Assembly: GCA_002408565.1 (NCBI GenBank)
Contig: DHTA01000001.1
Span: 1-49,678, forward strand
Source: Patescibacteria group bacterium UBA5272
Lineage (GTDB): Bacteria > Patescibacteriota > Minisyncoccia > Phycocordibacterales > UBA5272
DNA length: 49,678 bases
Direction: 5' to 3'
Position 1 is the first letter of the stretch; the number at the start of each line of letters is the position of its first letter. Positions 22,890 through 44,027 of the stretch are shown here, one piece after another. The notes beneath the pieces were generated by a model, which searched no databases, was not told the DNA's origin, and saw only the letters and a list, made by a program, of their open reading frames with translations. The translations under genes and the position numbers were made by a program.

Positions 22890-25800
22890 ATGAAAAGGAA
22901 AAGTTTTTCTTCTATTTTCTCCACTAAAACACTTGGGATTATTTTATTTATAATTCTGGGAGTTTTTAGTCTAAACATTAAAAATGTAGGAGCTGAAATT
23001 TTGGTTGAAATAAAATTAAGTGACAAAGACGAAAAATTTCTAATGAGTTCTAATTCCTCTCCGAAAGGCACCTCCAGAAATTTGCTTTGCGAGAATTATA
23101 ATATTACAACTGACAAAAGATTTCCACCTGCCGTGTGTTATAACTTTAAAGAAATAGACCCTGCTCTTACAAATCAAATAAACACCTTGGTACAAGAAAA
23201 AATATTAGCTAACCAAAAAAAAGATGCTGCAAAGCTTCAAGATTTATTTAAAGAAAGTTATAACTCAATAGACAATATCACAGATACTTCTTATTCTGAT
23301 TCTATACGATATTTAAAAGATTCTTTAGGCCAGGGAATGGATTTAGCCACTAAAAGTTATTTGTCTATTTATGAAAATTTAAAAAGCCAACCAATATCAG
23401 ACGAGAGAGTAGGATTAGGATTATTTAGATTTATTTCTGTTTTTTCTGAAAATCACGTAGACGAGATAGCAAAAAAATTAGCCCAGATGTATGTTTACAA
23501 CGCTATGACAGCTTATTTGACGGAAGGTCACACAACTTTAGAGCAGGAAAAGATCCCTCAAGAAGCTAGAGATGCAGCTTTAGCAATTCGAGAAAGTGTA
23601 GGGGAAAGTCTTTCTGACTCTGAAAAAGGCGCTGCAAGATATAATTTTTATGAAGTAGGTTTTGATGTTCCAACAAAATACCCAAGTTATATTGACAATC
23701 CTGGAGAAGGAGGAGGTTTAGGAATCACAAATCCCGATGGAACTGTAGATGTTACATCAGGAAAAGCTTCTTGTAGTGAAACTAGTGTTTTGGGAATTCT
23801 CAATAATCAAAACTGTTCCTTAGTGGCTTTTTTGATAAATAGTATTTTGGATGGAATTTTATTTTTAATTGGAGGATTGGTGAGACTTGTAGGCCAACTT
23901 TTTGATTGGGTTATTAGTTTTAGTATTTATAATTTTAATGACTGGGTAACAAATTCAAACGCTTATCATGTTTGGAGGAATGTAATTCTATCCTTAGTAA
24001 CCTCTCTACTTCTTCCTTTAGTCTTCTATATGATCATTAGAATGTTAATAGATAATGACACTTCTAGAATTAAAAAAATTCTTCCCAGACTTTTGATTAC
24101 AGCTCTCTTTGTTTATTTTTCTTTTGCTATAGTGGGGTGGATTATTGATCAAACCAATGTGCTTTCCATTTATCTTTATAGAAGCATGCATGATCCAGGA
24201 CAAACTTTAGGAGACAGCCTGAAAAGAATATTAGCTATTGATACAGCAGCAGTTGGTATAGCTAAAGCAGATTGGACTACCACTCTATTCCAACTTATAA
24301 AAGTTGTTATTAATTTTGTTTCTCTTTTGGTTTTGATTCAAGGATTGGTTCTTATATTTATGAGAGCTATTATACTTGTTCTTTGTTTAATTTTTTCTCC
24401 TTTAATGCTTTTGCCTGCTGGAATAAATGAATATATTGATAAATACAGAGACATGGTAATTAAAAGTTTTACCAACTCTGCAATCTCAGCCCCAATATTC
24501 ATGTTTATTGTACTAATTGCTTTACAAATAGGAGAAGGTATTAGAAACTCTCTAGAAAGCAATGCTCAGCTAAATCAAATAGGCCAAGGCTTATCTGGGG
24601 CAAACGTTACTATGGGAGCAACGATTTCTTCAATAATAATTATTGTGGTCTTACAATTAGCTATCACAGTCTCTAAAAGAATGAGTGGTGATATTGGTGG
24701 ACAAATTTCAGGAAAGATTGGTGGATTTGTTGGCAATTTAGCTTTTGGCGGTGCTGCAGCGGTTGCAAGAGGAGGCGTAAGAGCGGTATCAAACAATGAA
24801 AAATTCCAAGGTTGGATGCAAAAAAATGAAGGAACTTCTAGAGGAAAGTTAGCTGCAAGTATGATGAATACTGCCAAAAGCTCAACTTTTGACATGAGAA
24901 ACACTGCCGGCTTTCAGAAAGTTTCTCAAGTTACCACAGGAGACAAAGGATCTTTTGGTAAAGGTTCAACAAGAACCATAAAAAACTCTCAAGAAGCAGC
25001 GTATGTAAAAGAAAGAGCGTATCACAACTCACTTACTACCGAGCAAGGGAAAAAGGCAAACCTAGAAAGATTGCGAAAAGAATCTGGTGGAGGTTTGTAT
25101 GGAAAAGAAATTGCAGACAGACTTGAAGGCAGAGAGTCAGGTTTGTCTCTCTCCGAAAGAATCTCTCACGAAAGAGGGTATGAAATAAAGTTTGATAAAG
25201 CCAACGAAATAAAAGATGAAAATAAAAGAAAAGATAAGCTTATAGGCTCCATTGATGAGCATTATAAAGATAATAAAAAAGGGGAAAAATATTTTACAGA
25301 AGCTTTGGAAAAACCTGAGAATATTAAACTTAAAAAAGATTTTGAGGAAGCAAATAAAAAAGAAGGAGCAGCGGAAAGAAAAAGTGCAATTATGAAGACA
25401 GTTGAGGATTTTGAAAAAGAAGAGAAAACAAGAGCCAAAAAAGAGAAAGAAGAAAAAAAGAAAAAAGAAGAAGAACAAAAGGATGAGAAAGGGGAAGGAG
25501 ATAATTTGAAAGAAAAAATTAAATCAGGAGAAACTAAAGAAGGTCTGAAGGAAAAAACTTTTACCTCCGCCCCATCTTCCACATCAGATAAAGAAGTTTT
25601 AAAAAAAATGGAAAATATATCTAGAAACACAGAAGAAACAAAACATCAATTAATAAATATGAATAAATCTGTAACTTCTTTAATAGATTCTATGAGAAAT
25701 AAAAATACTAAAACTAGTGTAGATATTCCAGAAGAATATGTAGGAACTTCTTCTAGTTTAAGAAACAGACAGATGTATAAAAGAAATGAGAAAGGGGAGT

Positions 25801-25916
25801 TTATGAATTTAAATGAAGAACAAAAGGCTCAGAGTAAACAACAAAAAGAAACGTTAAACAAAAAAACTGAAACTACTGCCCCTGAACCAAAGAATACTTT
25901 AGACCAGGCAGCTTAG
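22890..25916 (+). CDS. Polytopic membrane protein, VirB6/TrbL-like, with a long K/E-rich C-terminal tail
   Basis: Signal/TM1, then an extracytoplasmic domain of about 300 aa, then at least 6 TM helices (e.g. AFLINSILDGILFLIGGLVRLVGQLFDWVISF). A Gly-rich segment follows, then a charged tail of about 350 aa. The family call rests on topology and context only. Confidence 0.6.
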   Translation: MKRKSFSSIFSTKTLGIILFIILGVFSLNIKNVGAEILVEIKLSDKDEKFLMSSNSSPKGTSRNLLCENYNITTDKRFPPAVCYNFKEIDPALTNQINTLVQEKILANQKKDAAKLQDLFKESYNSIDNITDTSYSDSIRYLKDSLGQGMDLATKSYLSIYENLKSQPISDERVGLGLFRFISVFSENHVDEIAKKLAQMYVYNAMTAYLTEGHTTLEQEKIPQEARDAALAIRESVGESLSDSEKGAARYNFYEVGFDVPTKYPSYIDNPGEGGGLGITNPDGTVDVTSGKASCSETSVLGILNNQNCSLVAFLINSILDGILFLIGGLVRLVGQLFDWVISFSIYNFNDWVTNSNAYHVWRNVILSLVTSLLLPLVFYMIIRMLIDNDTSRIKKILPRLLITALFVYFSFAIVGWIIDQTNVLSIYLYRSMHDPGQTLGDSLKRILAIDTAAVGIAKADWTTTLFQLIKVVINFVSLLVLIQGLVLIFMRAIILVLCLIFSPLMLLPAGINEYIDKYRDMVIKSFTNSAISAPIFMFIVLIALQIGEGIRNSLESNAQLNQIGQGLSGANVTMGATISSIIIIVVLQLAITVSKRMSGDIGGQISGKIGGFVGNLAFGGAAAVARGGVRAVSNNEKFQGWMQKNEGTSRGKLAASMMNTAKSSTFDMRNTAGFQKVSQVTTGDKGSFGKGSTRTIKNSQEAAYVKERAYHNSLTTEQGKKANLERLRKESGGGLYGKEIADRLEGRESGLSLSERISHERGYEIKFDKANEIKDENKRKDKLIGSIDEHYKDNKKGEKYFTEALEKPENIKLKKDFEEANKKEGAAERKSAIMKTVEDFEKEEKTRAKKEKEEKKKKEEEQKDEKGEGDNLKEKIKSGETKEGLKEKTFTSAPSSTSDKEVLKKMENISRNTEETKHQLINMNKSVTSLIDSMRNKNTKTSVDIPEEYVGTSSSLRNRQMYKRNEKGEFMNLNEEQKAQSKQQKETLNKKTETTAPEPKNTLDQAA

Positions 25917-25958: not shown

Positions 25959-27077
25959 ATGTCAGAAGAAAATAAATTATCTCTAAATCTAGAAGACTCA
26001 GAACCTGTTCTTGAAAATGAAGAAGAATTTGATTATGATTTTCTTAAAAAGAAGCCTAGTCCTGTTCCAGAAGAAAATACTGAAGATATCGTAACAAGTA
26101 AATTTGATACGGCTTTTGAGAACTCTTCTAAAACAATTCAAGATTATATTTTAGGCGACAAATTGGAAGAAAGTATTCGCTTAATTTGTAAAATAGAAAA
26201 ACTAGAAGGAGAAAAAGCTCAAATCATTATAGAAAATATAGCAGTCTCAATATTAGTGGGACTTTTACCTATTAATGAAGCTAAAGAAACTTTAATTGAA
26301 AGTTTCAGATCTAGTGGAATAATTCTAGAACCTTTTACAGCTAGTTCTATTTTAAAAAGTATTGATACTTATATTCTTACAGAGATTAGAAAGAAAATTC
26401 TCGAAAGTAAAATTGAAAACAATAAAGAAATTCGCCATCTCACTTTAAAAGAAAAAAGGGAGGAGACTCAAAAAGAAGAACTAAGAAAAATACTTCTAGA
26501 AAGAACAGGGACAATCACTGGTAAAGGAGAACCTTTGATTCAATACAAAGAAAGAGAAAAATCTGCTCAACAAATTGTGAAAGAAGAAGAGATTAAAAAA
26601 CAAGAAGAAAAAAAGGGGCAAGAAATGAATAGAGAGTCTCTTTTGGCAAAAATAAATATGCAAAACGTTTCCGACACAGACAAAATGCGAGAACGTATGG
26701 CTCAAATCAGAAAAGAGGAGCAGGAAAGATTAGAAAAAGTAGAAAAAAAAGAAAAGCGAGAGTTAGAAAGAATAGAAGAAATAAGAAAAATTGAAGAAAG
26801 GTATGAGATCGAAAGAATGAGTGAGATGGAAAAAGAAAAGTCAGAAAAGCCTGAAGAAAAAGAAATCTTTACCCAGGTAGTTGTAGAAGATTTAAAAGAA
26901 AAACTTTTAGCTCACGCAGACGAAAATACAGACTTAAATAATTTAAGAATACAAAGAGGAGAAAAAGAAGCGGAAATCCAAAAAACCAAAAATAATGATT
27001 TTTATAAAAATAGTATCACTGAAGAAATACCTGAAACCGATTATTTAAACTTCGATCCTTATAGGGAAAATCTTTAA
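25959..27077 (+). CDS. Hypothetical E/K-rich soluble protein in the T4SS-like module
   Basis: 372-aa ORF with no TM helix and an extended charged repeat region (KEEQERLEKVEKKEKRELERIEEIRKIEERYEIERM). Confidence 0.6.
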   Translation: MSEENKLSLNLEDSEPVLENEEEFDYDFLKKKPSPVPEENTEDIVTSKFDTAFENSSKTIQDYILGDKLEESIRLICKIEKLEGEKAQIIIENIAVSILVGLLPINEAKETLIESFRSSGIILEPFTASSILKSIDTYILTEIRKKILESKIENNKEIRHLTLKEKREETQKEELRKILLERTGTITGKGEPLIQYKEREKSAQQIVKEEEIKKQEEKKGQEMNRESLLAKINMQNVSDTDKMRERMAQIRKEEQERLEKVEKKEKRELERIEEIRKIEERYEIERMSEMEKEKSEKPEEKEIFTQVVVEDLKEKLLAHADENTDLNNLRIQRGEKEAEIQKTKNNDFYKNSITEEIPETDYLNFDPYRENL

Positions 27078-27106: not shown

Positions 27107-27586
27107 ATGCAATTTAGGCTTCCTCAATTCTTAGATATTGAAGATAAGGTTTTTGGACCTTTCACCTTTAAACAATTTGCTTATTTGATTGGAGCCTTAG
27201 CTTTTGGTTATCTTTTTTGGAGAATTATTCCTGCAAAAATTATTGCTGTACCTCTTATTTTTATCTTCTCAGGCACTTTTTTAGCCTTAGCTTTTGTAAA
27301 AGTTAATCATAGACCTTTTGCAGATATCTTAGAATCTGCATATAAATTTTTAATAGGAAATAAAACTTATGTTTGGCATCAGGAACAAAAAATTGAAAAA
27401 GAGGAGCCTAAAAAAGATTTACGAGCTTTAGACATACTAAAAAAGAAACAAATCAAAGAAGAAGAAATTAGCTCTTTTGAAAAAATCAAAGAGCTTTCAG
27501 GAAAGTTGGATATTTTAGATGAAAAAAAGAAGCACGCCATCAATTTACGTGAAGAATTAATAAAAAGAAATGAAAGAAAAAATTAA
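27107..27586 (+). CDS. PrgI-family (VirB3-like) small membrane protein
   Basis: The N-terminus LPQFLDIEDKVFGPFTFKQFAYLIGA is followed by two TM helices. This is the characteristic PrgI opening motif. The gene lies immediately upstream of VirB4. Confidence 0.75.
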   Translation: MQFRLPQFLDIEDKVFGPFTFKQFAYLIGALAFGYLFWRIIPAKIIAVPLIFIFSGTFLALAFVKVNHRPFADILESAYKFLIGNKTYVWHQEQKIEKEEPKKDLRALDILKKKQIKEEEISSFEKIKELSGKLDILDEKKKHAINLREELIKRNERKN

Positions 27587-27615: not shown

Positions 27616-28203
27616 ATGGCAAAAAATCCTTCTCAAAATTTTGTTCCAATTAAAGAGATTAGAAGTGGAGTGATGATTTTAAACAATGGCAATATGAGGG
27701 CCATTCTTTCGACTACTTCTTTAAACCTTTCTCTTAAAAGTGAAGATGAGCAGATGGGAATTATCATAGCTTTTCAAAGCTTTTTAAACTCTTTAGACTT
27801 TAACGTTCAAATTTTTGTGCAGTCAAAAAAGATAGATATTCGAGATTATATGAAAACTTTAAAGGAGCGAGAAAAAGAAGTGTCGGAAGAGCTTTTAAAA
27901 ATTCAAATAAAAGAATATATATCTTTTATTCAAAAATTCACAGAGGAGCAGAATATTATGACAAAAAGTTTTTATATTGTTATACCTTATGATATTCCAA
28001 CCATTACCGGAAATACAAAAAGAATGACGGATACTGATTTTATTAAAAATGAAAGTCAGTTAATGCAAAGAGTTTCTATTGTAGTTAGTGGCCTGTCTGC
28101 TTTGGGCTTAAGATTAAAACTAATTGACACAGAAGAAATAGTTAGTCTTTTCTACAAGTTATTCAATCCAAACGAATTAGATGCTAATTTAAAAAAGTTT
28201 TAA
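27616..28203 (+). CDS. Protein resembling the N-terminal domain of VirB4/TrsE-type ATPases, encoded separately
   Basis: 195 aa beginning FVPIKEIRSGVMILNNGNMRAILSTTSLNLSLKSEDEQ. It ends 4 nt before the ATPase ORF. The two ORFs together total about 800 aa, the size of single-chain VirB4 proteins. Confidence 0.55.
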   Translation: MAKNPSQNFVPIKEIRSGVMILNNGNMRAILSTTSLNLSLKSEDEQMGIIIAFQSFLNSLDFNVQIFVQSKKIDIRDYMKTLKEREKEVSEELLKIQIKEYISFIQKFTEEQNIMTKSFYIVIPYDIPTITGNTKRMTDTDFIKNESQLMQRVSIVVSGLSALGLRLKLIDTEEIVSLFYKLFNPNELDANLKKF

Positions 28204-28207
28204 AAAT

Positions 28208-30019
28208 ATGGGAATATTAGACATTTTTTCAAATAAAAATAAAACAGATCCAAATGCAGAGCCTTCAAAAGAAGAAATCTACGATCAAGCTAGTGTGGAG
28301 TTAAAAAATTTTATAGCTCCAGCCGGTTTAAAAATCGATGCTCAACAGTTGAATCTTTCAGGAAAACTGGCAAAAAGTTTTTTTGTGATTTCTTATCCAA
28401 GATATTTGGATGATTCTTGGTTGGCACCAATTATTAATCTTGACAAGATTTTTAACGTATCTATTCATATTACTCCTCTTGCTACCGCAGAAATGATGAA
28501 AAAATTTCAAAAAAAAGTGGTGGAAATAGAAAGTCAGATTTATGTCAAACAAGAAAAAGGGGAAGTTCGTGACCCAAAACTGGAAACCGCTCTTCGAGAT
28601 TTGGAAGATTTAAGAGATTCTCTTCAACAATCTAGCGAAAAAATGTTTGAAGTTGGTCTTTATATTACGATTTTTGGTGACACTGATGATGAACTTAAAA
28701 AAGCAGAAACTGAAATTAAAAATATTTTAGAAAGTAAATTAATTTATTTAAGGCCTGCTCTCTTTCAGCAAGCAGAGGCTTTAAAAACTACTATGCCATT
28801 TTGTTTGGACGAGATTAAAATTACCAACCAACTCAACACTTCTCCACTCTCTTCTTTCTTTCCATTTCTTTCTTTCGATTTATCAACTAACAATGGTATT
28901 TTGTATGGCTTAAATAGACATAATGGATCTTTAATTTTATTTGATAGATTTTCTTTAGAAAACTACAATAGCATGGTTTTTGCTACCTCTGGTTCTGGTA
29001 AATCTTATTATACAAAACTAGAAATATTACGTACTTTAATGTTTGATACCAATGTCATAATTATTGACCCTGAAAGAGAATATGAATATTTAGCTGAATC
29101 GGTTGGTGGAAGATATTTTAATATTTCTTTAAATTCAGATCATCATATTAATCCTTTTGATATAGCGTATCCTGGAGAAGATGAGTCCGTTGCAGACGTG
29201 CTTAGAAGTAACATTATTCATTTAGTAGGACTTATGCGAGTAATGCTTGGGGGACTCACTCCAGAAGAAGATGCTATTGTTGATAGAGCCTTAACAGAAA
29301 CTTATGCTATTAAAGATATCACTCCAAATACTGATAGTTTAGAAGGATTAGAATTTCCAGTTTTAGGAGACTTTGCAGAAGTTTTATCTGGAATTGAAGG
29401 TTCAGAAAATATTTTACAAAGACTTTCAAAATATACTGAAGGGGTCTGGTCTGGTTTTATTGGACAACCTTCTAATATTGATATTAATAAAAAATTAATT
29501 TGTTTCTCAATTCGTGACATGGAAGATGAGCTAAAGCCTGTAGCAATGTATATTATCACTCATTATATTTGGGGAGAGATAAGGAAAGAGTTAAAGAAAA
29601 GACTTTTAATTATTGATGAGGCTTGGATAATGATGAAAAATGAAGACACCGCGTCTTTTCTTTTTGGTATGGCAAAAAGAGGAAGAAAATACTACTTAGG
29701 CCTCTCGGTAATTTCTCAAGATGTAGGAGATTTTTTACGTTCAGCTTATGGTTTACCTATTATTACCAACTCAAGTATGCTTTTACTTTTAAAACAATCT
29801 CCTTCTAGTATTGATTTGGTACAAAAAACTTTTAATCTCACAGATGAGGAGAAATATTTACTTCTAAGTTCTGGAGTAGGGGAAGGAATATTCTTTGCTG
29901 GTCAAAAACATGTTGCTATAAAAGTCATTTCTTCTTATGTGGAAGATCAAATAGTCACCACTAACCCTGCTCAACTTCTTGAAGCTAAAAAGAAAAAACA
30001 ACAAACTCAAGCTGAATAA
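28208..30019 (+). CDS. virB4: VirB4/TrbE/CagE-family T4SS ATPase (C-terminal ATPase portion)
   Basis: Walker A is FATSGSGKSYY and Walker B is LLIIDEAWIMM. The conserved YYLGLSVISQD and GEGIFFAGQKH regions are present. Confidence 0.9.
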   Translation: MGILDIFSNKNKTDPNAEPSKEEIYDQASVELKNFIAPAGLKIDAQQLNLSGKLAKSFFVISYPRYLDDSWLAPIINLDKIFNVSIHITPLATAEMMKKFQKKVVEIESQIYVKQEKGEVRDPKLETALRDLEDLRDSLQQSSEKMFEVGLYITIFGDTDDELKKAETEIKNILESKLIYLRPALFQQAEALKTTMPFCLDEIKITNQLNTSPLSSFFPFLSFDLSTNNGILYGLNRHNGSLILFDRFSLENYNSMVFATSGSGKSYYTKLEILRTLMFDTNVIIIDPEREYEYLAESVGGRYFNISLNSDHHINPFDIAYPGEDESVADVLRSNIIHLVGLMRVMLGGLTPEEDAIVDRALTETYAIKDITPNTDSLEGLEFPVLGDFAEVLSGIEGSENILQRLSKYTEGVWSGFIGQPSNIDINKKLICFSIRDMEDELKPVAMYIITHYIWGEIRKELKKRLLIIDEAWIMMKNEDTASFLFGMAKRGRKYYLGLSVISQDVGDFLRSAYGLPIITNSSMLLLLKQSPSSIDLVQKTFNLTDEEKYLLLSSGVGEGIFFAGQKHVAIKVISSYVEDQIVTTNPAQLLEAKKKKQQTQAE

Positions 30020-30038
30020 TTTTGTTATAATATATTTA

Positions 30039-30809
30039 ATGAAAAAAAATAAAAAAAAATTATCTTTTTTACTTTTAATGTTTTTCTTTCTTTTTTTCTA
30101 TTTTTTAAACGAAGGAAAGGCACAAACTTATACCATCTCTTCTAAAGTAAATATAGACTGGGAGGTTTTAAATAGTTATACCCCTCCTTTTTATGAAGGA
30201 AAAACTTTAGCAGCAGAGCAAGCTGAGCTTAAAGCTGTTGCAGAAGTCGAAATTTTAACTCCAGCTGGAATTTTAGATCCCAACAAGCTTTTTTATGCTT
30301 GGTCTTATAATGATTTTTATGCTCATAATTATTCTAAAACTGGTGGAAAAATTATTTATTTTACTTTAGATGGTTTAGTGAGCGAAAACGTAATTAATCT
30401 TAAGGTTTATGAAGATAATAGACAAAAAAATCTTTTAGTAGAAAAAACTATTCGAATTCCACCTAGAAAAACTTTGCCTATACTTTATAGAAAAAATTCT
30501 AGCCCTATTATCACTTACTCTAATGCTATAAATAAAAAATATGAAGCTTACAAAGTCTCTCCTGGAGAAGAATTTGAAATTCTGGCTGAACCATACTTTT
30601 TTACAGCTAAATCTGCTGAGGATAGAAATTTAAGTTATACCTGGTCCTTAAACGGTATTCCTGGAAATCTAAACTATTCTAATGTTTTTGATTATAAAGC
30701 TCCCGGCTCGGCTTATAGAGACTTTGGAGTAGAGGTTGTTGTGAATAATAGTTCAAAACTATTACAAAAAAGTGAAACTCTTTTAAATTTTATTTTTAAG
30801 GAAAATTAG
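30039..30809 (+). CDS. Secreted hypothetical protein with an internal duplication
   Basis: Signal peptide (LSFLLLMFFFLFFYFLNEGKAQ). Two related halves are visible (LFYAWSYND... and LSYTWSLNG...). I prefer the ATG at 30039 over 29979, which would overlap virB4. Confidence 0.7.
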   Translation: MKKNKKKLSFLLLMFFFLFFYFLNEGKAQTYTISSKVNIDWEVLNSYTPPFYEGKTLAAEQAELKAVAEVEILTPAGILDPNKLFYAWSYNDFYAHNYSKTGGKIIYFTLDGLVSENVINLKVYEDNRQKNLLVEKTIRIPPRKTLPILYRKNSSPIITYSNAINKKYEAYKVSPGEEFEILAEPYFFTAKSAEDRNLSYTWSLNGIPGNLNYSNVFDYKAPGSAYRDFGVEVVVNNSSKLLQKSETLLNFIFKEN

Positions 30810-30839
30810 TCTGTTTCTTGTGCTAAAATATGTTTATAT

Positions 30840-32291
30840 ATGAAAAAGTTTTTCATTTTTGTCTTTCTAATCTCTGGTTTTTTTTCTTTTTTTAATGTTT
30901 CTGCTCAAGATGTATATTCTAGAGAGACTTATGAATATGTTTCGTCTTTTGACGGAACGGCCACTTCTACCACTTTTGAAAATACAAGCGCTCGTGGTAT
31001 TGCTGTTTCTATAAATTTTATTTTAACCCTAATGGCAGTATCTATTATAGTTTTAATTATTTTTAGAGTGATTCAAGGAGCAGTTATCAAGGGTACTTTA
31101 GATAATATTTATCAACAAACAAAAGGCAGGAGCCTTATTCAAAACGCTGGAATAGCTTTGATTATTTTTATATTTTCCTATGCGATTCTTTCTTTTATTA
31201 ATCCGAGATTAACCGGTTGGACTTTAGCTACTAAATATGCAAATACAGCTTTTAGAGACACCTTTAAGAGTGCAGACATTTGTAATCCAAATGAAAGATA
31301 TTCAAGCACTAATGCTCTCGACATGCTGATGCAAGACGAAGGTAATAAAACAAGTATTTATACTGACACTACTGGGCATCTGAGTATAGGAGTTGGTTTT
31401 AATTTAAACAGAGAAGCTCCCACTGTAGTAAAAAATGATTTAATGAAAGCTGGAATTTCAAATGATGTGGCCGAAAAACTGATTGCTGGAGATAGAGGAG
31501 TCATCATCACTCAAGAACAAGTAAAAAAACTTTTAGAAAATGATTTTGAAAAGCATAAAAAAATGGCTATAGATTTTGCTGGAGGACAAAGTAATTTTAA
31601 TTCTCATCCAGAAAATATTCAAAACGTTTTAATTAATATGACTTTTAATATGGGATCGGGAGGTATTGCTAGTTTTAAAAAAATGCAAGAAGCTTTGAAT
31701 AACAAAGATTATGAAGGTGTAGCAAAAGAAATAGTAGACAGCAAATATTGCAGTCAAGTAGGAGGAAGATGCTCTCGTTTAGCCAATTTAGCAGCTCCCA
31801 ATTATTGTATAGCGTATCAACAACAATTAGCCACAAACAAATCTCTTTTTGGTGGTACGAAAGGATCTTGGCCTGGAGTAAGTATAAATGATACTGTTAT
31901 TATTCATAATATCCGTGTCGGAAAATCTATAGAACCACAAGCTAGAAGACTTTTGGATGCTTTAGTGGCTGCTAACATAAATTTCGAAGGGACAACCAGT
32001 TGGAGAACTTATGAAAAACAGATTGAGCTAAGAAAAACAAATGGTTGTCCTGATATTATTAATTCTCCTTCTAACACTTGTAAAGTTCCTACAGCAAAAC
32101 CAGGAACCTCACGCCATGAAGCTGGTGTTGCTTTTGACTTCCAGTATGAAGGAAAGACTCTTTGCTATTCTAATGCGACCTGTGTAAAAGGTACAAACCC
32201 TTTATACGACTGGTTGATGGCCAACGCAAAAGATTATGGTTTTTATAAAAATAGTAAAGAAGCGTGGCACTGGTCAGTAGACGGAAAGTAA
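30840..32291 (+). CDS. Fusion protein: T4SS-pilin-like N-terminus, GH24 (T4-type) lysozyme, and M15 (VanY-like) peptidase
   Basis: Signal peptide plus two TM helices at residues 1-125. LDMLMQDEGNKTSIYTDTTGHLSIGVGFNL aligns by eye with T4 lysozyme [30 protein letters not shown], and INMTFNMGSGGIASF with INMVFQMGETGVAGF. The C-terminus carries PGTSRHEAGVAFD and EAWHW (M15 zinc ligands). Confidence 0.85.
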   Translation: MKKFFIFVFLISGFFSFFNVSAQDVYSRETYEYVSSFDGTATSTTFENTSARGIAVSINFILTLMAVSIIVLIIFRVIQGAVIKGTLDNIYQQTKGRSLIQNAGIALIIFIFSYAILSFINPRLTGWTLATKYANTAFRDTFKSADICNPNERYSSTNALDMLMQDEGNKTSIYTDTTGHLSIGVGFNLNREAPTVVKNDLMKAGISNDVAEKLIAGDRGVIITQEQVKKLLENDFEKHKKMAIDFAGGQSNFNSHPENIQNVLINMTFNMGSGGIASFKKMQEALNNKDYEGVAKEIVDSKYCSQVGGRCSRLANLAAPNYCIAYQQQLATNKSLFGGTKGSWPGVSINDTVIIHNIRVGKSIEPQARRLLDALVAANINFEGTTSWRTYEKQIELRKTNGCPDIINSPSNTCKVPTAKPGTSRHEAGVAFDFQYEGKTLCYSNATCVKGTNPLYDWLMANAKDYGFYKNSKEAWHWSVDGK

Positions 32292-32300
32292 TATTTATTT

Positions 32301-33716
32301 ATGGAATCAAAAAAAGAATCATTTTTAAAAAAAAATAAAAAAGAAATAATTGTTGTTGTTTTAGCTGTTTTAGCTTTTAGCTTATTGTTTTATTTTTTGT
32401 TTTTCAAAGAAAAACTTCCAAATTCTTCAGAATCTCCAAACCAAACAGGGAAACCGGTTTTCAATTTTGGAAATTTATTTAATTTTTTTACTAGTAATGG
32501 CGATAAAGGAGAAGGCCTTGTAGAAAATCCTGACGATACGAATTTTGTTGATTATTATTTTGAAAGTTTGATAAAGGTTTGGGATAAGCCAGTAGCAGGT
32601 TATGGATTTTATGATAAAGTTTTTACTTATAAATATACCGATTCTGAGGGTATAGAACAAACATCCACTTCAAGTAAAACTATTTTACAGTTTGTAGACG
32701 CTGAAACCGGTTTTATTTATGAAAAAGATTTAATGTCTCCAACTTCCACCCCAGTCCAAGTGACAACTTCATCTTTTCCAAATACTGTACGGGCTTATTT
32801 CATGAATGAAAAGGAAGGAGGTAAAAATAGAGTTTTCTTTCAGTTTTTAGGAGCAAATAATACTATTAAAACAGTAAGTGCTACTATACCAACATATTAT
32901 GGCTCTCCAGCAAAACTAATGAATTCTTTGAATTTTCCAGACAATATTAAAAATATTGTCACCTCTCAAGACAATACCAAATTAGCTTATATTGTTCAAA
33001 AAGAAAAAGAGGTTGGAGGAAAAACTGACACTTATACAGATTGGTATTTAATGGAGGACGCAGAAAATTCTTATGGCAAAAGAGTTTATAGCTCTGAACT
33101 TTCTTCCTGGAAACTAATTCTTTCTAATATTGGCGAGCTTTTTGCTCAAACCACAGACACAGCTTATGAAAATAATAGTCTTTACAAAGTAAAGACTATT
33201 AAGAACACTTTGGGTAGTTTATCTCAAATTTACGGTAACCACAATGGTATGATGTTTTTAATAGAAAATAATAATTTATTGACTTCTATCTTTACAAGCT
33301 CTGGTATAAAACTTTATAAAAATATAACTTTTGATGAAAAAAGTTTTACAGATGCCGATTTAATTCCGATTAATTTTTCTACTTTAGTTAATAAATGTGT
33401 ACAAAGTAACACTTTAAATGAACAGTTAATAATTTGTTCTGTTCCAAAAGAGATTGTTAATTATGATGCTGGATTGCCGGATGCTTGGTATCAAGGAATG
33501 ACAACTTGGGAAGATGATTTATATGTTATGAATGCTGAATATTCAAATGGGCATCTTTTATTCGACATAAGATCAGACGGACAAGTAGAAGATATTATTG
33601 ATGCTAAAAATTTAAATATTAATTCTTATAAATCTCATTTAGGATTCATTAATAAAAACGATGGGTCGCTTTGGACCTTAAATATAGCAAATATTCTTTA
33701 TTTGGGAGGGGATTAA
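32301..33716 (+). CDS. Hypothetical N-terminally anchored protein, last gene of the T4SS-like module
   Basis: 471-aa ORF with one TM helix (IIVVVLAVLAFSLLFYFLFF) and a beta-rich extracytoplasmic domain. Confidence 0.7.
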   Translation: MESKKESFLKKNKKEIIVVVLAVLAFSLLFYFLFFKEKLPNSSESPNQTGKPVFNFGNLFNFFTSNGDKGEGLVENPDDTNFVDYYFESLIKVWDKPVAGYGFYDKVFTYKYTDSEGIEQTSTSSKTILQFVDAETGFIYEKDLMSPTSTPVQVTTSSFPNTVRAYFMNEKEGGKNRVFFQFLGANNTIKTVSATIPTYYGSPAKLMNSLNFPDNIKNIVTSQDNTKLAYIVQKEKEVGGKTDTYTDWYLMEDAENSYGKRVYSSELSSWKLILSNIGELFAQTTDTAYENNSLYKVKTIKNTLGSLSQIYGNHNGMMFLIENNNLLTSIFTSSGIKLYKNITFDEKSFTDADLIPINFSTLVNKCVQSNTLNEQLIICSVPKEIVNYDAGLPDAWYQGMTTWEDDLYVMNAEYSNGHLLFDIRSDGQVEDIIDAKNLNINSYKSHLGFINKNDGSLWTLNIANILYLGGD

Positions 33717-33720
33717 TTAT

Positions 33721-34473
33721 TTACTTTTTATTCTCTTCCTTCTTTACTGATTTTAATTTCTTTTTAATATATATATCTTGAAAAATAGAAAGGATATTAT
33801 TTACTGTCCAATAAACTCCAATAGCTGAAGGAAGTACTGCGGCTGAGACTCCAGAAATCACTGGCAAAAAGTATTTCATTTGCATTTGCATGGTTTTAGC
33901 AAAAACTTCTTGGAAATCTTGAGTTTTAGAATCTCTTTGTTTTTCTTCTTTTTTATTATTAGTCAAACCAAGACTTTGTCTTTTAGAGAGAATAAACATG
34001 GTTATCCCAGTTAAGATTCCAACCCATATGTATTTTTGAGACAAATTCATAAAACCAAAAGCTAAATTTTTAACTGTTCCCGGGAAGGTATTAAAAGAAT
34101 AAATTAAATCTTCTCTAAGAATTACTCCACCATCCCTAAAAACATAAAAGAGAGCAAAAAAAACAGGAATTTGTATCAAAAGAATTAAAAAACTAGAAAA
34201 AGGTTTAATTTTCTTTTCTTTATAAATTTTCATTGTCTCTTCAGCAATTTTTTGTTTATCATCTCCGTATTTCTTTTTAATAGTAGACAATTCTTCTTGG
34301 GCGTCCTTAATTAAATAAGAGCTTTTTTGTGAAGATAAATTTAGTTTTAAAAGTAAAAGTTTAATAAGAATTGTTGTGAGAATTATAGCTACACCGATAT
34401 CATGACTAGGAAAAAGGTTAAGAAAAAAAACGACAATATTATAAACCGGCGCCAAGAAAAATGTATTAAACAT
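33721..34473 (-). CDS. yidC: Membrane protein insertase YidC (short form)
   Basis: GVAIILTTILIKLLLLKL, KKYGDDKQKIAEETMKIYKEKKIKPFSS and LLIQIPVFFALFYVF. It sits in the conserved rpmH-rnpA-yidC context. Confidence 0.9.
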   Translation of the reverse strand: MFNTFFLAPVYNIVVFFLNLFPSHDIGVAIILTTILIKLLLLKLNLSSQKSSYLIKDAQEELSTIKKKYGDDKQKIAEETMKIYKEKKIKPFSSFLILLIQIPVFFALFYVFRDGGVILREDLIYSFNTFPGTVKNLAFGFMNLSQKYIWVGILTGITMFILSKRQSLGLTNNKKEEKQRDSKTQDFQEVFAKTMQMQMKYFLPVISGVSAAVLPSAIGVYWTVNNILSIFQDIYIKKKLKSVKKEENKK

Positions 34474-34478
34474 ATTTA

Positions 34479-34844
34479 TTATTTATTAATTATTTTATTA
34501 AAAGCATTATACAATTCTTTTTCTAAATCGAGAAACTTTAAAGTTTTTAAATCTTTTTTTGGATAAATCAAAACCGCTAATTTTTCTTCTGTTTTTATTT
34601 CTTTTTCTTTTAAATATTTATCCAGTAAACTAAATATTCGTCTTCGAATTTTATTTCTTTCTACCGCTTTTTTAAAGACCTTTCCTGAAAGGATTACAGC
34701 AAAAGAAAAATTTTTTCTTTTATTTGTTTCAAACAAAACATATTTTATATCAAAAAATACACCTCTAATTATCTTAATAGGTGTATTTTTTTTAAAAATA
34801 CTTTTTATCTCTAAAGATGTTAATTTATAAGCTTTCTTTAACAT
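34479..34844 (-). CDS. rnpA: RNase P protein component
   Basis: AVERNKIRRRIFSLL is the RNR motif region. The gene lies between rpmH and yidC. Confidence 0.85.
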   Translation of the reverse strand: MLKKAYKLTSLEIKSIFKKNTPIKIIRGVFFDIKYVLFETNKRKNFSFAVILSGKVFKKAVERNKIRRRIFSLLDKYLKEKEIKTEEKLAVLIYPKKDLKTLKFLDLEKELYNAFNKIINK

Positions 34845-34852
34845 TTAATATG

Positions 34853-35083
34853 TTATTTCTTTTTATTTAACTTTTTGAGAACTTTAGCTTTACTAGACTT
34901 AACAGTCTCCATTCTTTTAACTAAAGATTTTTTCTCATCTGAAACTGAAAGTTTTACCCTTCCTTTCCTTCTTCTGTTTTGTATTATCTTCTTTCCTCCT
35001 TCAGTTTCCATTCTCGAAAGAAAACCGTGAGTTGTGTATCTTTTTTTGTTTTTTGGTTTATAAGTTACTCCGCCTGATGCCAT
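34853..35083 (-). CDS. rpmH: 50S ribosomal protein L34 with a C-terminal extension
   Basis: YKPKNKKRYTTHGFLSRMETEGGKKIIQNRRRKGRVKLSV matches the L34 core. About 27 extra K-rich residues follow. Confidence 0.85.
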   Translation of the reverse strand: MASGGVTYKPKNKKRYTTHGFLSRMETEGGKKIIQNRRRKGRVKLSVSDEKKSLVKRMETVKSSKAKVLKKLNKKK

Positions 35084-35219
35084 AAATTTGTTTAATTAAT
35101 TTTGTATTAATATACAATAAAATTCTCAAAAAAACAAGTATTTTATCCTTTGTTTGTTTATTTTTTCAAACTTTTGTATAATAGAAAAAATCATTCTTAA
35201 TTATACTAATTCTAAACTT

Positions 35220-36566
35220 ATGGACTACAAACAAATCTGGGATATGGCCTTATCAAGAATAGAGTTAGAATTGTCTCGGGTTAATTTTAATACTTGGTTT
35301 AGAAATACTCAAATTATTAACTATAAAGATGGTGTTGTGATTATTGGAGTTCCAAATGACTTTGTAAAAGAATGGCTTATTCAAAAACATCAAAAATTTA
35401 TTTTAAGAATTTTAAGAGAGATACATGAAGATGTTAGGGGGGTAGATTTTCACACAGTTAAACTTGAAACTTTACAAAAAAAGGCAGTGCAAGCTAAAAA
35501 TAAAATCATGGAACCTACCAGTTCTCTCCCACTTCAAGATTTATATATAAATAAAGACGATGGTTTAAACCAGAAATATACCTTTAATAATTTTGTGGTG
35601 GGAAGCTTTAATGAGCTAGCTCATGCAGCTTCTCAAGCTATTATTAAAAGTCCAGGAATAGTTTATAATCCCTTATTTATTTATGGAAATACTGGTTTAG
35701 GAAAAACTCATCTTATACAAGCTATCGGCAACACCATTAAAAACACTTATTCTGACAAAAAAGTTTTTTACACTTCTTTAGAAAAATACTATTTAGAGTT
35801 TGTTTCTGCTATTAATAGTCAAAAAATTAATAATTTTAAGGAAAAATATAAAAAATACGATGTTTTTATAATGGATGATATTCAATTCATAAATGGAAAA
35901 GAAAAAACTCAAGATGAACTCTTTCACCTTTTTAACAGTCTCCATAATGACAATAAACAAATAATTTTTTCTTCAGATAAACACCCTAATTTTATAGTAG
36001 GCTTGGAAGATAGATTAAAATCTCGTTTCAATCAAGGTATGATTGTAGATATTGGAGTCCCTGATTACGAATCCAGAATCAATATTTTAAGATCAAAAAT
36101 TAAAAATAGAGAAAAAGTAGAAGAAGGGGTAATTGAATACGTGGCGGAAAATATTAATGGAAATATTCGAGAACTAGAAGGTGTTATTAATTTCATTCAA
36201 GCTCAAATTGAACTTTTTGATCAAAAAGTTACCTTACAAAGTATTAAAAATCTTATTAAAAATAATGTTCGCTCTAAAAAATCCGTCTCTATTTCTGAAG
36301 TAGTTAAAATTGTGTCTGAATATTATAATATTCACCCTTCTTTTATTTACAACAAAACTCGTAGAAAAGACATAGTTAAACCAAGACAGATAATTATGTA
36401 TATTTTAAGAGAATACTTTGATGTTTCTTATCCAACCATAGGGGAAAAGTTGGGAGGAAAAGATCATACAACAGTAATTCACTCTTACGAGAAAATTAAA
36501 AAAGAGAGAAAGGAAGATCCTTATTTGAATAAAGAAATAGAAGAGCTTTATAATATTTTAAAATAA
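35220..36566 (+). CDS. dnaA: Chromosomal replication initiator DnaA
   Basis: Walker A is GNTGLGKTHL and Walker B is VFIMDDIQF. The sensor region is RLKSRFNQGMIVDI. The C-terminal DNA-binding helix is GGKDHTTVIHSYEKI. I prefer the ATG at 35220 (MDYKQIWDMAL...) over the TTG at 35154. Confidence 0.95.
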   Translation: MDYKQIWDMALSRIELELSRVNFNTWFRNTQIINYKDGVVIIGVPNDFVKEWLIQKHQKFILRILREIHEDVRGVDFHTVKLETLQKKAVQAKNKIMEPTSSLPLQDLYINKDDGLNQKYTFNNFVVGSFNELAHAASQAIIKSPGIVYNPLFIYGNTGLGKTHLIQAIGNTIKNTYSDKKVFYTSLEKYYLEFVSAINSQKINNFKEKYKKYDVFIMDDIQFINGKEKTQDELFHLFNSLHNDNKQIIFSSDKHPNFIVGLEDRLKSRFNQGMIVDIGVPDYESRINILRSKIKNREKVEEGVIEYVAENINGNIRELEGVINFIQAQIELFDQKVTLQSIKNLIKNNVRSKKSVSISEVVKIVSEYYNIHPSFIYNKTRRKDIVKPRQIIMYILREYFDVSYPTIGEKLGGKDHTTVIHSYEKIKKERKEDPYLNKEIEELYNILK

Positions 36567-36905
36567 GATTTAATGTTTATAACTTGTGAATTATATTCTG
36601 GATTACTCTTTTGATTACAAGAATATCTGTGCATAACTTTCGTATAACTTTCTTAAGTTTCTATTATTTGAAAACATTTTTAAATAATTGTAAATCTTAA
36701 TTCAATTTTTCTTTTTCTGAATCACACCTTTTCTTTTTTAAAGACACCTTAATAGCCTTATTCAACAACACCTTTTTGAGTTTTTAACTTTATCAACAGA
36801 CATATCTATTAATAAGTATTATTAAAATAATAATAATTTAAAACCTGTATAACTTTTTAAGTTTTGATATTTTAAAATATTCTATATAATAGATATTATA
36901 AAACT
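36567..36905. other. Candidate oriC in the dnaA-dnaN spacer
   Basis: This 339-nt AT-rich spacer holds DnaA-box-like elements: TGTTTATAACTT 36574-36585, TGTGCATAACTT 36628-36639, TTCGTATAACTT 36639-36650 and CCTGTATAACTT 36844-36855. ACACCTT occurs three times (36724-36730, 36744-36750, 36768-36774). Confidence 0.6.
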
Positions 36906-38039: not shown

Positions 38040-38303
38040 ATGATTAATAATATTCATAGTTTGTTTTCTAAGTATAAAGAAAGTATAATTTCAAAAAAAA
38101 ATATTGAAGATCAGGTTATTTTTATAATAAAAGAAAAAACTAATTTAAAATTAGAATCTAAAAATTTAAAAATAAACACAAAAAACAAAACTGTAAAAAT
38201 AGTAAATTTAAAATCAAGTTTAAGGTTTGCTTTACAAAATAAACTTGTTGAAGATAAAATTTCTACTATTATTAAAGATCGTACCGGTTTTATTTTAAAT
38301 TAG
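38040..38303 (+). CDS. Small hypothetical protein, possibly DUF721/DciA-like
   Basis: 87-aa ORF directly after dnaN. The pattern KNKTVKIVNLKSSLRFALQNKLVEDKISTIIKDRTG loosely resembles DUF721. I recognised this only by eye. Confidence 0.5.
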   Translation: MINNIHSLFSKYKESIISKKNIEDQVIFIIKEKTNLKLESKNLKINTKNKTVKIVNLKSSLRFALQNKLVEDKISTIIKDRTGFILN

Positions 38304-40549: not shown

Positions 40550-40664
40550 ACTTATATTAGCTTGTGGTAAATAAATTAAGTAATTACATTTTATCACAGA
40601 GATAAAAAATAACCGTTTTTTAAAAAGGTCCTTTATGCTATACTTTATAAATAATTGTAATTTT

Positions 40665-43877: not shown

Positions 43878-44027
43878 AAAAACCGCATAGATCTCTAAAC
43901 AATTGAGACTTCGTCTCATACTTTTATAGGTGAAGGACGGCTTTGGTTAGATTTATTCTAAACTGAACCTATCCTTACACGAAAGTTTTCTTCACCAAGA
44001 GGTTGTTTAGAGATCTGTGTGGTTTTT
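43878..44027 (+). ncRNA. Candidate structured RNA, family unknown, with a 6S-like overall architecture
   Basis: A 25-bp closing helix joins 43878-43902 and 44003-44027. Its two non-Watson-Crick pairs are G:U only on the plus strand. Internal hairpin TGAGAC-TTC-GTCTCA lies at 43904-43918. A second helix pairs GGTGAAGGA 43929-43937 with 43988-43996 and encloses a further hairpin. The element ends in T5. Confidence 0.45.

Follow-up and report, generated by a model that had tools for sequence, protein, structure and literature searches.

A T4SS-associated protein of an uncultured Patescibacterium unites a T4SS_pilin-like hairpin, a T4-type lysozyme and an M15 peptidase exchanged between strains

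T4SSs are widespread in Patescibacteria, where they adjoin the replication origin and are essential for host-dependent life in one genetically tractable species (PMC10633639, PMC12102498). One ORF beside such a system raises the question of what a single polypeptide does that carries a pilin-like membrane module in front of two different peptidoglycan-cleaving domains. It is located in a stretch of 49,678 nt, here referred to as the window, which comprises positions 1-49,678 (forward strand) of contig DHTA01000001.1 in assembly GCA_002408565.1. The source is Patescibacteria group bacterium UBA5272, an uncultured, ultra-small member of Patescibacteria/CPR (GTDB lineage Bacteria; Patescibacteriota; Minisyncoccia; Phycocordibacterales; UBA5272). 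The first-pass annotation of this DNA had divided the ORF into a pilin-like N-terminus, a T4-type lysozyme and an M15 peptidase. Testing upheld all three domain calls, and the catalytic and zinc residues that it had listed (E167, H426, D433 and H477) are all at the positions given there. The features of the ORF and of its surroundings are collected in Table 1.

Table 1. Features of the 483-aa protein and of neighbouring genes in the window
Feature	Position	Strand	Basis or remark
1008-aa multi-pass membrane protein, VirB6-like, K/E-rich tail	22890..25916	+	weak TrbL_3
PrgI-family (VirB3-like) membrane protein	27107..27586	+	Pfam PF12666, 1.3e-10
Split VirB4, N-terminal part (TraC-like / TrsD-like)	27616..28203	+	NCBIfam; PF26593
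VirB4-like ATPase, CD1110 family (monoderm conjugation type)	28208..30019	+	NF045971, 2.1e-113, above cut-off; P-loop_TraG
Conserved 256-aa secreted protein between virB4 and hydrolase	30039..30809	+	no Pfam/NCBIfam family match
Whole ORF: signal peptide, pilin-like hairpin, GH24 lysozyme, M15B peptidase	30840..32291	+	ATG start, 483 aa
Signal peptide, residues 1-22, predicted cleavage VSA/QD	30840..30905	+	hydropathy and sequence
T4SS_pilin-like (PF18895-related) module, residues 29-128	30924..31223	+	conservation, profile links, AF2
Variable linker, residues 129-157, invariant C148 and Y154	31224..31310	+	family alignment
GH24/T4-type lysozyme domain, residues 158-322; E167, D176, S182; invariant C304/C311	31311..31805	+	Pfam, profile, AF2, Foldseek
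Swappable cassette: interdomain linker end, M15B domain, stop codon and 7 nt spacer	31851..32298	+	DNA comparison with L012, Pfam VanY
M15B (VanY/LdcB-type) zinc peptidase within the cassette, residues about 338-483; R389, H426, D433, E474, H477
Conserved 471-aa membrane-anchored protein, directly downstream of hydrolase, outside the swapped cassette	32301..33716	+
Class A PBP	38300-40597

The ORF is real and transcribed. It is found in identical form on 5 contigs from independent assemblies and is present in at least 20 metagenome runs, from digesters, sludge and landfill, and DNA contigs of two unrelated metagenomes cross it without joints. Transcripts of the gene occur in anaerobic-digester metatranscriptomes, and one metatranscriptome contig of 1,487 nt corresponds to positions 30737-32199, with both domain junctions inside; an RNA contig also shows a strain variant with an in-frame insertion of 3 nt at 31310-31311. 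Moreover, at least 16 full-length homologues (28-94% identity) keep the architecture, which the first-pass annotation had proposed to search for in other genomes. The same annotation had named an assembly fusion of separate genes as the finding that would overturn its reading. The independent assemblies, the joint-free DNA and RNA contigs and the homologues of the same architecture rule out such an artefact, and we give next to no probability to separate genes having been fused by assembly or gene calling.

The two enzyme domains were recognized directly. Phage_lysozyme (PF00959) matches residues 166-303 with 34.9 bits (Pfam cut-off, 22.3), and the family profile was aligned with residues 1-161 of T4 lysozyme (T4L) at E = 3e-27. 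In this alignment E11, D20 and T26 of T4L correspond to E167, D176 and S182; the first two are invariant in 17 homologues, and at the T26 position relatives have T or S, a conservative substitution. The AF2 model has pLDDT values of 80-94 in the lysozyme domain, and Foldseek gave TM-scores (target) of 0.71-0.74 to T4L entries. Pfam, profile and model thus agree with the proposed T4-type lysozyme with catalytic E167, a predicted muramidase that would cut glycan strands. At the other end of the protein, VanY (PF02557) matches residues 359-479 with 44.8 bits (Pfam cut-off, 25). The three zinc ligands of the M15 motif (H426-x6-D433...H477) are invariant across homologues, and E474 (EAWH) and R389 (SWRTYEKQ) are present in the window copy. 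The nearest solved structures are VanYB (5hnm) and LdcB (4ox5), both weak matches (E = 0.02-0.04). The peptidase would cleave stem peptides or cross-links, its activity and bond specificity being predicted from the domain family.

The N-terminal part was more difficult to assign. A hydrophobic leader is common to all homologues in the family alignment, and hydropathy confirmed the signal peptide and two hydrophobic helices that had been noticed before, with cores at residues 59-77 and 103-121 and a net positive segment between them (78-102; 3 K/R, 1 D/E). Signal peptide, two long hydrophobic helices and a short basic turn are also what PF18895 proteins have. In the topology predicted by hydropathy, all 8 Cys of the protein fall in the extracytoplasmic part. 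Direct scanning of residues 1-156 with Pfam and NCBIfam returned no pilin family, even at E <= 10, and no PF04956; the hmmscan with pilin models suggested in the first-pass annotation thus gave no match. The 483-aa protein did not reach the PF18895 gathering score, and only 4 of 17 family members matched PF18895, weakly (best E = 0.0085). As the direct scans were empty, the link to pilins could be seen only with family profiles. An exhaustive search of 1.84 billion representatives with a profile for the N-terminal module of the family gave 860 matches; fusion proteins of the same family came first, and 101 of the next 117 were PF18895 T4SS_pilin proteins. By hhalign, the module matched the Pfam-confirmed pilin region of P0019 with 95% probability (E = 2.5e-8). 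A reciprocal profile, built from distant pilin modules only, scored 66.2 bits on this ORF and matched nothing else in the window.

Fusions and stand-alone PF18895 pilins can be aligned without gaps and have their conserved positions in common (GG/GA...T.D...KG...NA...INP.L). The near-invariant pilin positions G57, G73, A80, L84, L94 and I97-N98-P99 are kept (numbering of alignment A5; the protein residue is +23), and the module begins with the mature N-terminal motif YxxVSSFDGT and ends with FINPxLTGW. Residues 59-128 are the best conserved region of the family (mean pairwise identity, 67%). The first AF2 model had a low-confidence N-terminus, and the model of the module alone is a helical hairpin of two long helices (50-86 and 90-120) with a pLDDT of 82.7. 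At the profile level, the N-terminal module therefore belongs to the PF18895 pilin family. The generic signal anchor, which the first-pass annotation had set against its own reading, is not borne out, since the module is the most conserved part and recovers PF18895 proteins. That annotation had also likened the hairpin to VirB2/TrbC pilins. Here the similarity holds for PF18895, and the relation of PF18895 to solved VirB2/TraA pilins was not confirmed by sequence or fold: a profile search of PDB sequences found no pilin, Foldseek of the hairpin model against the PDB gave only non-significant helical-hairpin matches (best E = 1.5) and no conjugative pilin, and a weak TrbC co-match was seen in only some PF18895 relatives. 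The earlier pilin reading had rested on topology alone, and sequence profiles now back it.

The hydrolase gene is located one gene downstream of split virB4, in a monoderm-type T4SS cluster adjoining dnaA. Gene order is the same in a relative with as little as 36% identity (L008) and in a variant bearing SLT (L011), and the 256-aa secreted protein is found at the same position in L001-L003, L008 and L012. In a related locus, a simpler T4SS_pilin+VanY protein is encoded two genes after virB4. The class A PBP in the window indicates that the organism makes its own peptidoglycan. Among the ORFs scanned in the window there was no relaxase or coupling protein, and neither the Rfam nor the tRNA scan of the window gave a match. 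No phage genes are present near the locus, and the flanking genes are housekeeping ones. A prophage or mobile-element origin of the locus was ruled out by these flanks and by the result for relaxase and coupling protein.

The peptidase end differs between close strains. The cassette in Table 1 has no DNA similarity to strain L012, whereas its flanks are 96.2% and 94.8% identical, and the M15 domains on the two sides of the swap are about 25% identical. The GC content of the cassette is 38%, against 32% in the remainder of the gene. The cassette ends 2 nt before the ATG of the next gene, which is still 94.8% identical. Thus only the M15 domain has been replaced between strains with flanks of about 95-96% identity; this modular, strain-level replacement of the M15 domain alone is new here, and M15 replacement is repeated across the family. 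A conserved N-terminal part with an exchangeable C-terminal enzyme domain is the pattern of polymorphic toxins. There is no immunity gene inside or adjoining the swapped segment, and the idea of one was rejected because the segment contains only the M15 domain. Since close strains exchange its peptidase end as a cassette, the protein offers a handle on T4SS action at the cell wall.

The explanation that we favour, though with only slightly better than even confidence, is that the protein is the wall-opening subunit of a chromosomal monoderm-type (MPF-FATA-like) T4SS, a functional counterpart of PrgK, TraG or CwlT. First, the protein would be exported by Sec and its signal peptide removed. Second, the VirB2-type pilin hairpin would hold it in the membrane with the turn in the cytoplasm and both ends outward. 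Third, the GH24 muramidase and the M15B zinc peptidase would thereby be placed outside the membrane, within the peptidoglycan. The muramidase would then act on glycan strands and the peptidase on stem peptides or cross-links, which would produce a local gap for the T4SS conduit. Finally, the pilin-derived hairpin would couple the enzymes to the machine, presumably by the contacts that a stand-alone pilin has with VirB4, VirB3 and VirB6. This explanation is favoured by the PrgI, split VirB4 and VirB6-like genes immediately upstream and by the conserved gene order, and equally by the domains with their catalytic residues, the predicted topology, the pilin homology, the organism's own peptidoglycan, the transcription of the gene and the literature on monoderm VirB1 homologues and on Ca. 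Southlakia epibionticum cited below. The GH24 and M15B domains argue against it, as characterised T4SS hydrolases have other enzyme families (SLT, muramidase, CHAP, NlpC/P60, LytM). The hydrolase may dock to the T4SS, and the wall opened may be that of the cell itself or of a host. A wall-drilling device aimed at either, as the first-pass annotation had imagined, is plausible. Remodelling of the own wall only would give no obvious reason for the exchange of an M15 domain for one of 25% identity between strains so similar in the flanks, nor for an anchor that keeps every conserved pilin position.

Searches of the window and of 12 related loci revealed no stand-alone pilin and no second pilin module, and for this reason the hairpin may do more than anchor the enzymes. 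A serious though doubtful candidate is that it is a functional pilin, extracted by VirB4 and built into the T4SS pilus as a tip, minor or initiating subunit, so that the enzymes reach the host wall. In a VirB2-type pilin the C-terminus lies on the filament exterior, so that lysozyme and peptidase would be brought to this wall, and the M15 domain, being exchangeable, would adapt the device to the peptidoglycan chemistry of the host and act as a determinant of host range. The gap-free retention of all near-invariant PF18895 positions, together with the mature N-terminal motif, is consistent with this, as is the fact that the hairpin is the sole pilin-like module of the loci searched. Other fusion forms exist as well: the distant T4SS_pilin matches include fusions to SLT, YkuD, Amidase_2, NlpC/P60, M15_4 and Tlde1, and some further proteins have tandem modules with SLT. 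Moreover, the N-terminus of the family is conserved and its C-terminal enzyme is hypervariable and laterally exchanged, a pattern typical of proteins directed at other cells and of phage lysins. Epibiotic growth requires the T4SS and pilins of Patescibacteria, and the literature proposes a pilus conduit (PMC10633639, PMC12857230).

However, polymerisation has not been reported for any PF18895 protein, and, judging from the F-pilus geometry in the literature, a homopolymer with about 40 kDa extra on each subunit is sterically implausible. The pilus would then need a major pilin from a gene elsewhere, and none was seen in the window or the 12 loci. In addition, no immunity-like gene moves with the cassette, the downstream gene being conserved between the strains, and the hairpin with its 67% identity contrasts with the average of 25% for surface-exposed pilin arrays (PMC12102498). 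Rather unlikely in our opinion is the specific form in which the hydrolase N-terminus is the only VirB2-like pilin of the clade's cluster, within or capping a short pilus, with the enzymes boring through host peptidoglycan and the exchangeable M15 domain setting host range. If the enzymes were borne on a pilus, swapping of the M15 cassette would be analogous to receptor- or lysin-swapping in phages.

It is quite improbable that the polypeptide is a pro-protein, cut after INPxL(TGW) into a small pilin and a soluble two-domain hydrolase in analogy to the C-terminal processing of TrbC/VirB2 pilins, although co-translation would then ensure wall opening where the pilin is made. Stand-alone PF18895 pilins do end about 10-20 residues past INPxL, and exactly at this point the poorly conserved linker (31% identity, low pLDDT) starts in the fusions. 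However, no protease candidate and no conserved cleavage motif were found, and the invariant W127 and C148 beyond the motif suggest a structured continuation. Highly improbable is a housekeeping autolysin or prophage-derived lysin with a generic double-pass anchor that merely adjoins T4SS genes: both GH24 and M15 are well known from phage endolysins and the surrounding genes are housekeeping ones, but no other part of the protein is as conserved as the anchor, which is related specifically to T4SS pilins, the post-virB4 position is retained in lineages with as little as 36% identity and with different enzymes, and no phage genes are nearby.

As a natural covalent fusion of pilin and enzyme, the protein ties pilin biology to the breaching of peptidoglycan in one molecule. 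It can serve as an antigen or tag of known (predicted) topology, in which the location of the enzymes, whether in the producer membrane, the filament or the host wall, is also that of the pilin. The strain-level exchange of M15 alone provides a natural allelic series for distinguishing action on the own wall from action on the host wall. Surveys that use SLT/CHAP profiles for VirB1 and small-pilin profiles for VirB2 will miss or misfile such a component; one survey of this kind came to the conclusion that VirB1 is missing from most Patescibacteria with VirB2 (PMC12102498).

Several known systems can be compared with this locus. Epibiotic growth of Ca. Southlakia epibionticum requires lysozyme-like and M15 peptidase-like proteins whose genes directly follow virB4 (PMC12102498; PMC10633639 supplement); in strain ML1, SEML1_0006 has two lysozyme-like domains and a cysteine peptidase, SEML1_0007 has a C-terminal Hedgehog/DD-peptidase domain (M15 fold), and the pilins are SEML1_0014-0019 (PMC12102498, PMC10633639). 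The two T4SS clusters are alike in their position adjacent to the replication origin, in PrgI and split VirB4, in the lysozyme-like and M15-like domains after virB4 and in their PF18895 pilins. However, S. epibionticum has separate genes for lysozyme, M15 peptidase and each of its six pilins, whereas here a single 483-aa polypeptide unites one pilin module with both types of enzyme, and the UBA5272 cluster shows no pilin of its own besides it. With PF18895 T4SS_pilin proteins in general, the module has in common the signal peptide, the mature N-terminal Y..(L/V)(A/S)(P/S)..G, the two long hydrophobic helices and the location in a T4SS cluster. A typical stand-alone pilin has about 100-200 aa, whereas the present protein has about 360 C-terminal enzyme residues; 69 of the 117 distant module-bearing proteins, however, also have more than 100 residues after the module. 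The present protein stays below the Pfam threshold and has a hairpin much more conserved than in typical pilin arrays.

The lysozyme domain matches T4 lysozyme (gpe) in its GH24 fold and catalytic residues. Modular phage endolysins with VanY/M15 likewise join glycosidase and metallopeptidase, and their enzymatic domains are shuffled too. A precedent for two wall enzymes on a penetration device is the tail protein gp13 of phi29, with lysozyme and M23 peptidase at the tip of the tube. Unlike these phage enzymes, the present gene is chromosomal and flanked by housekeeping genes, and its product relies on a signal peptide and a pilin anchor where they use holin-dependent release or a virion attachment domain. 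The X-Tfe T4SS effectors of Xanthomonas and polymorphic toxins also have T4SS-associated peptidoglycan-degrading domains and a conserved N-terminus with an exchanged C-terminal enzyme; in contrast to them, the present locus has no XVIPCD-type signal and no immunity gene at the swapped segment, and no coupling protein was seen in the window.

The closest functional likeness is to the monoderm systems. VirB1-like hydrolases had been described in the first-pass annotation as usually separate and soluble, which holds for diderm systems and fails for monoderm ones, where every known VirB1 homologue has a membrane anchor and places its enzymatic domains outside the cell (PMC12857230). The predicted topology and domains of the present protein agree with this, and a tethered two-enzyme hydrolase is thus an expected component here. 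PrgK (pCF10), TraG (pIP501) and Orf14 (Tn916) are likewise encoded in monoderm T4SS clusters near virB4, with an N-terminal anchor and extracellular glycan- and peptide-acting enzymes, and CwlT (ICEBs1) follows the same pattern. These four proteins have a plain TM segment instead of a signal peptide and PF18895-type hairpin, and SLT or muramidase with CHAP, NlpC/P60 or LytM instead of GH24 and M15B; exchange of the peptidase domain between strains is a further difference of the 483-aa protein. By Pfam, which finds GH24 and M15B only, its enzyme domains have no homology to theirs, and the relation is a functional analogy, not family membership. The architecture that had been regarded as unusual is therefore of a kind already known in so far as it tethers two enzymes, membrane-anchored multi-domain hydrolases being normal in monoderm T4SSs; unusual are the pilin-type anchor, the enzyme families used and the swappable peptidase.

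The hydrolase is encoded by one real gene, which is transcribed. Independent assemblies provided 5 contigs that encode the identical protein, each time with unchanged neighbouring genes, and the sequence recurs in 20 or more metagenome runs, taken from anaerobic digesters, sludge, landfill and one fermentation sample. Metagenome contigs from 2014 and 2024 cover the entire ORF with 0 and 1 differences and without joints. The sequence was also found in metatranscriptomes: a variant-strain RNA contig of 1,487 nt covers 30737–32199 with both domain junctions, and near-identical pieces (0–2 differences each) from a second metatranscriptome cover most of the ORF. Moreover, the architecture is common to at least 16 full-length homologues with 28–94% identity. 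An assembly fusion of separate genes, a possibility raised by the first-pass annotation, is thus refuted by the independent assemblies, the junction-spanning DNA and RNA contigs and the homologues. The variant strain has 32 substitutions and an in-frame 3-nt insertion at 31310–31311, the exact linker/lysozyme junction, and its ORF is intact.

Both enzyme domains exceed the curated Pfam cut-offs, Phage_lysozyme (PF00959) at residues 166–303 and VanY (PF02557) at residues 359–479. The family profile matched T4 lysozyme residues 1–161 with E = 3e-27, in which E167, D176 and S182 correspond to Glu11, Asp20 and Thr26; E167 and D176 are invariant across 17 homologues, as are the zinc ligands H426, D433 and H477 of the C-terminal domain in the homologues. 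R389 and E474 (in EAWHW) are found in the window copy. In the AlphaFold2 model, block pLDDT across the two enzyme domains lies mostly at 80–94, and Foldseek matched T4 lysozyme entries (target TM-scores 0.71–0.74). The closest solved structures to the M15 domain, all weak matches, are VanYB (5hnm) and LdcB/DacB (4ox5, 4d0y). These results bear out the earlier calls of a T4-type lysozyme and an M15 peptidase, with every residue named for them at its stated position.

As for topology, the segment between the two hydrophobic cores (residues 78–102) has 3 K/R and 1 D/E, the start of the mature protein is acidic, and all 8 cysteines lie beyond the second core or inside the enzyme domains. Under the positive-inside rule, this predicts a cytoplasmic hairpin turn, with the mature N-terminus and the C-terminal part of ~360 residues outside.

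Features of the window and of the hydrolase ORF, with DNA identity to L012, the related locus of the strain encoding homologue P0003
Position	Feature	Details
14302–15486 (-)	LysM + Peptidase_M23 protein, 394 aa	second wall enzyme, ~5 kb upstream of T4SS cluster
15565–16560	K/E-rich low-complexity	331-aa protein
	Secreted protein, 800 aa	first of listed upstream genes
	VirB6-like protein, 1008 aa	second upstream gene; multi-pass; weak TrbL_3
25000–25916	K/E-rich low-complexity	C-terminal tail of VirB6-like protein
	Charged protein, 372 aa	third upstream gene, after VirB6-like protein
25959–27077	K/E-rich low-complexity	372-aa protein
	PrgI (VirB3-like)	fourth upstream gene
27616–28203	VirB4 N-terminal ORF	TraC/TrsD-like
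28208–30019	VirB4 ATPase ORF	CD1110 family, 2.1e-113
30039–30809	Secreted protein, 256 aa	directly before hydrolase gene
30840–32291 (+)	Hydrolase ORF, 483 aa	ATG start
residues 1–22	Signal peptide	ending VSA, before QD; hydropathy
residues 59–77	Hydrophobic core 1	hydropathy
residues 103–121	Hydrophobic core 2	hydropathy
32301–33716	Membrane-anchored protein, 471 aa	directly after hydrolase gene
29069–31850	Left flank of cassette	96.2% identity to L012
31851–32298	Cassette	similarity to L012 undetectable (L012 2786–3249)
32299–42301	Right flank of cassette	94.8% identity to L012
34000–38000	GC drop to 24–26%	around rpmH-rnpA-yidC / dnaA-dnaN
44026–45780 (-)	PilB/GspE-type ATPase (T2SSE + MshEN)	~12 kb from T4SS cluster

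We further focused on the N-terminus, which had been described as pilin-like. Residues 1–156 scanned directly matched no pilin family in Pfam, and only 4 of 17 family members touched PF18895 (T4SS_pilin), weakly. Conservation within the hydrolase peaks in this region, with mean pairwise identity in the family of 67% at residues 59–128, 50% in the lysozyme domain and 31% in the peptidase domain; SSFDG, N59, G80, K84-G85-T86, G96, A103 and F119-I120-N121-P122, among others, are invariant. The module profile (A2), run exhaustively against 1.84 billion representative proteins, gave 860 matches, whereas a word-indexed protein search gave 0 with it; hydrophobic modules of low complexity may escape such searches. 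The top ~33 were mostly fusion proteins of ~440–660 aa, the few shorter ones being probably truncated. PF18895 accounted for 101 of the next 117 (best E = 1e-27), and many PF18895 matches are stand-alone proteins of 104–200 aa. In hhalign, the module profile met the Pfam-confirmed pilin segment of P0019, a T4SS_pilin+VanY protein, with 95% probability (E = 2.5e-8), and a profile of distant pilins only, with the hydrolase family left out, had the hydrolase ORF as its sole match in the window (66.2 bits). A joint alignment of the fusion family and the pilins is co-linear and gap-free through the hairpin, sharing nearly invariant GG/GA, KG, NA and INPxL positions and a mature N-terminal motif (YxxVSSFDGT in the fusions, YxLLAPLPGT in the pilins). 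AlphaFold2 with a deeper alignment gave the module a pLDDT of 82.7, with long helices at 50–86 and 90–120 and a tight turn between. These profiles and alignments identify the N-terminal region as a T4SS pilin module of divergent sequence. The pilin-like claim thus stands at the level of PF18895. No connection to solved VirB2/TraA pilins emerged: none was found by profile search of PDB sequences, and Foldseek of the hairpin model gave insignificant matches only. Therefore, the putative VirB2 link rests on the standing of PF18895 and on weak TrbC (PF04956) co-matches from some module relatives.

DNA and protein comparison shows the peptidase domain to be an exchangeable cassette, a new observation. 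The segment replaced between the window and L012 comprises the M15 domain and the stop codon. Its left breakpoint lies in the interdomain linker, right after the shared NKSLF codons, with identity already down to ~75% in the preceding 60 nt, and its right end is 2 nt short of the next gene's ATG. GC is ~38% in both alleles versus 32% in the rest of the gene (window, ~31%). No immunity-like gene travels with the cassette between the window and L012. Identity matrices by region show that the same incongruence recurs across the family: module, GH24 and M15 identities are 81%, 64% and 93% for P0003 and P0006, 82%, 77% and 18% for P0015 and P0016, and 81%, 84% and 20% for P0011 and P0013. In the wider family the glycosidase position holds GH24, a pesticin-like lysozyme, SLT or none, and some distant T4SS_pilin proteins bear YkuD, Amidase_2, NlpC/P60, M15_4 or Tlde1 domains, or as many as four pilin modules in tandem together with SLT. 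Outside the window, P0050, P0070 and P0048 have two to four tandem modules per polypeptide, P0050 with a C-terminal SLT domain as another pilin-hydrolase architecture.

The T4SS cluster is chromosomal and origin-adjacent, because yidC, rnpA, rpmH, dnaA and dnaN lie immediately beyond it; 34000–38000 is presumed to be the replication origin region, abutted by the cluster as in other Patescibacteria. The remaining window genes are housekeeping ones (tig, nusA, pgk, uvrD, rsmA, ruvB, a class A PBP and the PilB-like ATPase, which points to genes for type IV pilus machinery near the cluster). The window ORFs scanned included no relaxase or coupling protein, and the whole 49.7-kb window yielded neither a tRNA gene nor an Rfam family at gathering threshold. 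At every related locus, the hydrolase is bracketed by the 256-aa and 471-aa proteins. Neither has a family match in Pfam or NCBIfam, and both are candidates for T4SS components not yet recognised as such, perhaps with a VirB8-like role. Gene order is kept in L008 at 36% identity, in L011 (P0018), where SLT stands in place of GH24, and for the simpler P0019, two genes past virB4. The related loci carry MAG labels of Candidatus Elulimicrobiales, Paceibacterota/Paceibacteria and 'Saccharibacteria', which all belong to the Patescibacteria group.

The best-supported reading, which we hold with modest confidence, is that the hydrolase is a wall-opening subunit of the T4SS. It would be exported by Sec and kept in the membrane by the pilin-type hairpin, with muramidase and zinc peptidase exposed in the peptidoglycan. 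The hairpin would plausibly dock the enzymes to VirB4, VirB3 and VirB6 through pilin-type contacts, since it is the most conserved part; in Agrobacterium, VirB4 handling of membrane-embedded VirB2 is established. In the main rival, possible though rather doubtful, the module would enter a pilus and bring the enzymes to the host wall. In its favour, every conserved pilin position is retained, no other pilin occurs in 12 loci and the cassette exchange is lysin-like; against it, a homopolymer would be sterically implausible, no PF18895 protein has demonstrated polymerisation, and the hairpin conservation is unusually high. A pro-protein cleaved after INPxL is improbable, and a housekeeping or prophage lysin is unlikely.

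The cluster fits what has been published on Patescibacterial T4SSs, which are MPF-FATA-like, origin-proximal and usually without relaxase, with VirB2-like pilins that are unusual among monoderms; most genomes with VirB2 are inferred to lack VirB1 (PMC12102498). We found no mention of a pilin-hydrolase fusion in the literature on Patescibacterial or monoderm T4SSs available to us, nor any prior description of what appears here, a T4SS wall hydrolase with a pilin-family anchor, GH24 and M15B domains and a strain-variable cassette. The novelty would be the combination of this anchor, GH24/M15B and a swappable peptidase on an otherwise known T4SS wall-hydrolase type. The first-pass annotation is therefore confirmed in its three domains and supported in its interpretation, with two corrections: the VirB2 link holds only via PF18895, and tethering, which it had set against usually separate soluble VirB1-like hydrolases, is normal in monoderms. 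In Ca. Southlakia epibionticum, which also has a split VirB4 (SEML1_0009/0008), the lysozyme-like SEML1_0006, M15-fold SEML1_0007 and pilins SEML1_0014–0019 are essential and encoded by separate genes (PMC10633639), whereas the window has a single polypeptide. Tethered multi-enzyme hydrolases are the norm for monoderm T4SSs: according to a 2025 review, such hydrolases as PrgK, TraG and Orf14 invariably have a membrane anchor and extracellular enzymatic domains (PMC12857230), and the window hydrolase is analogous to them by predicted topology.
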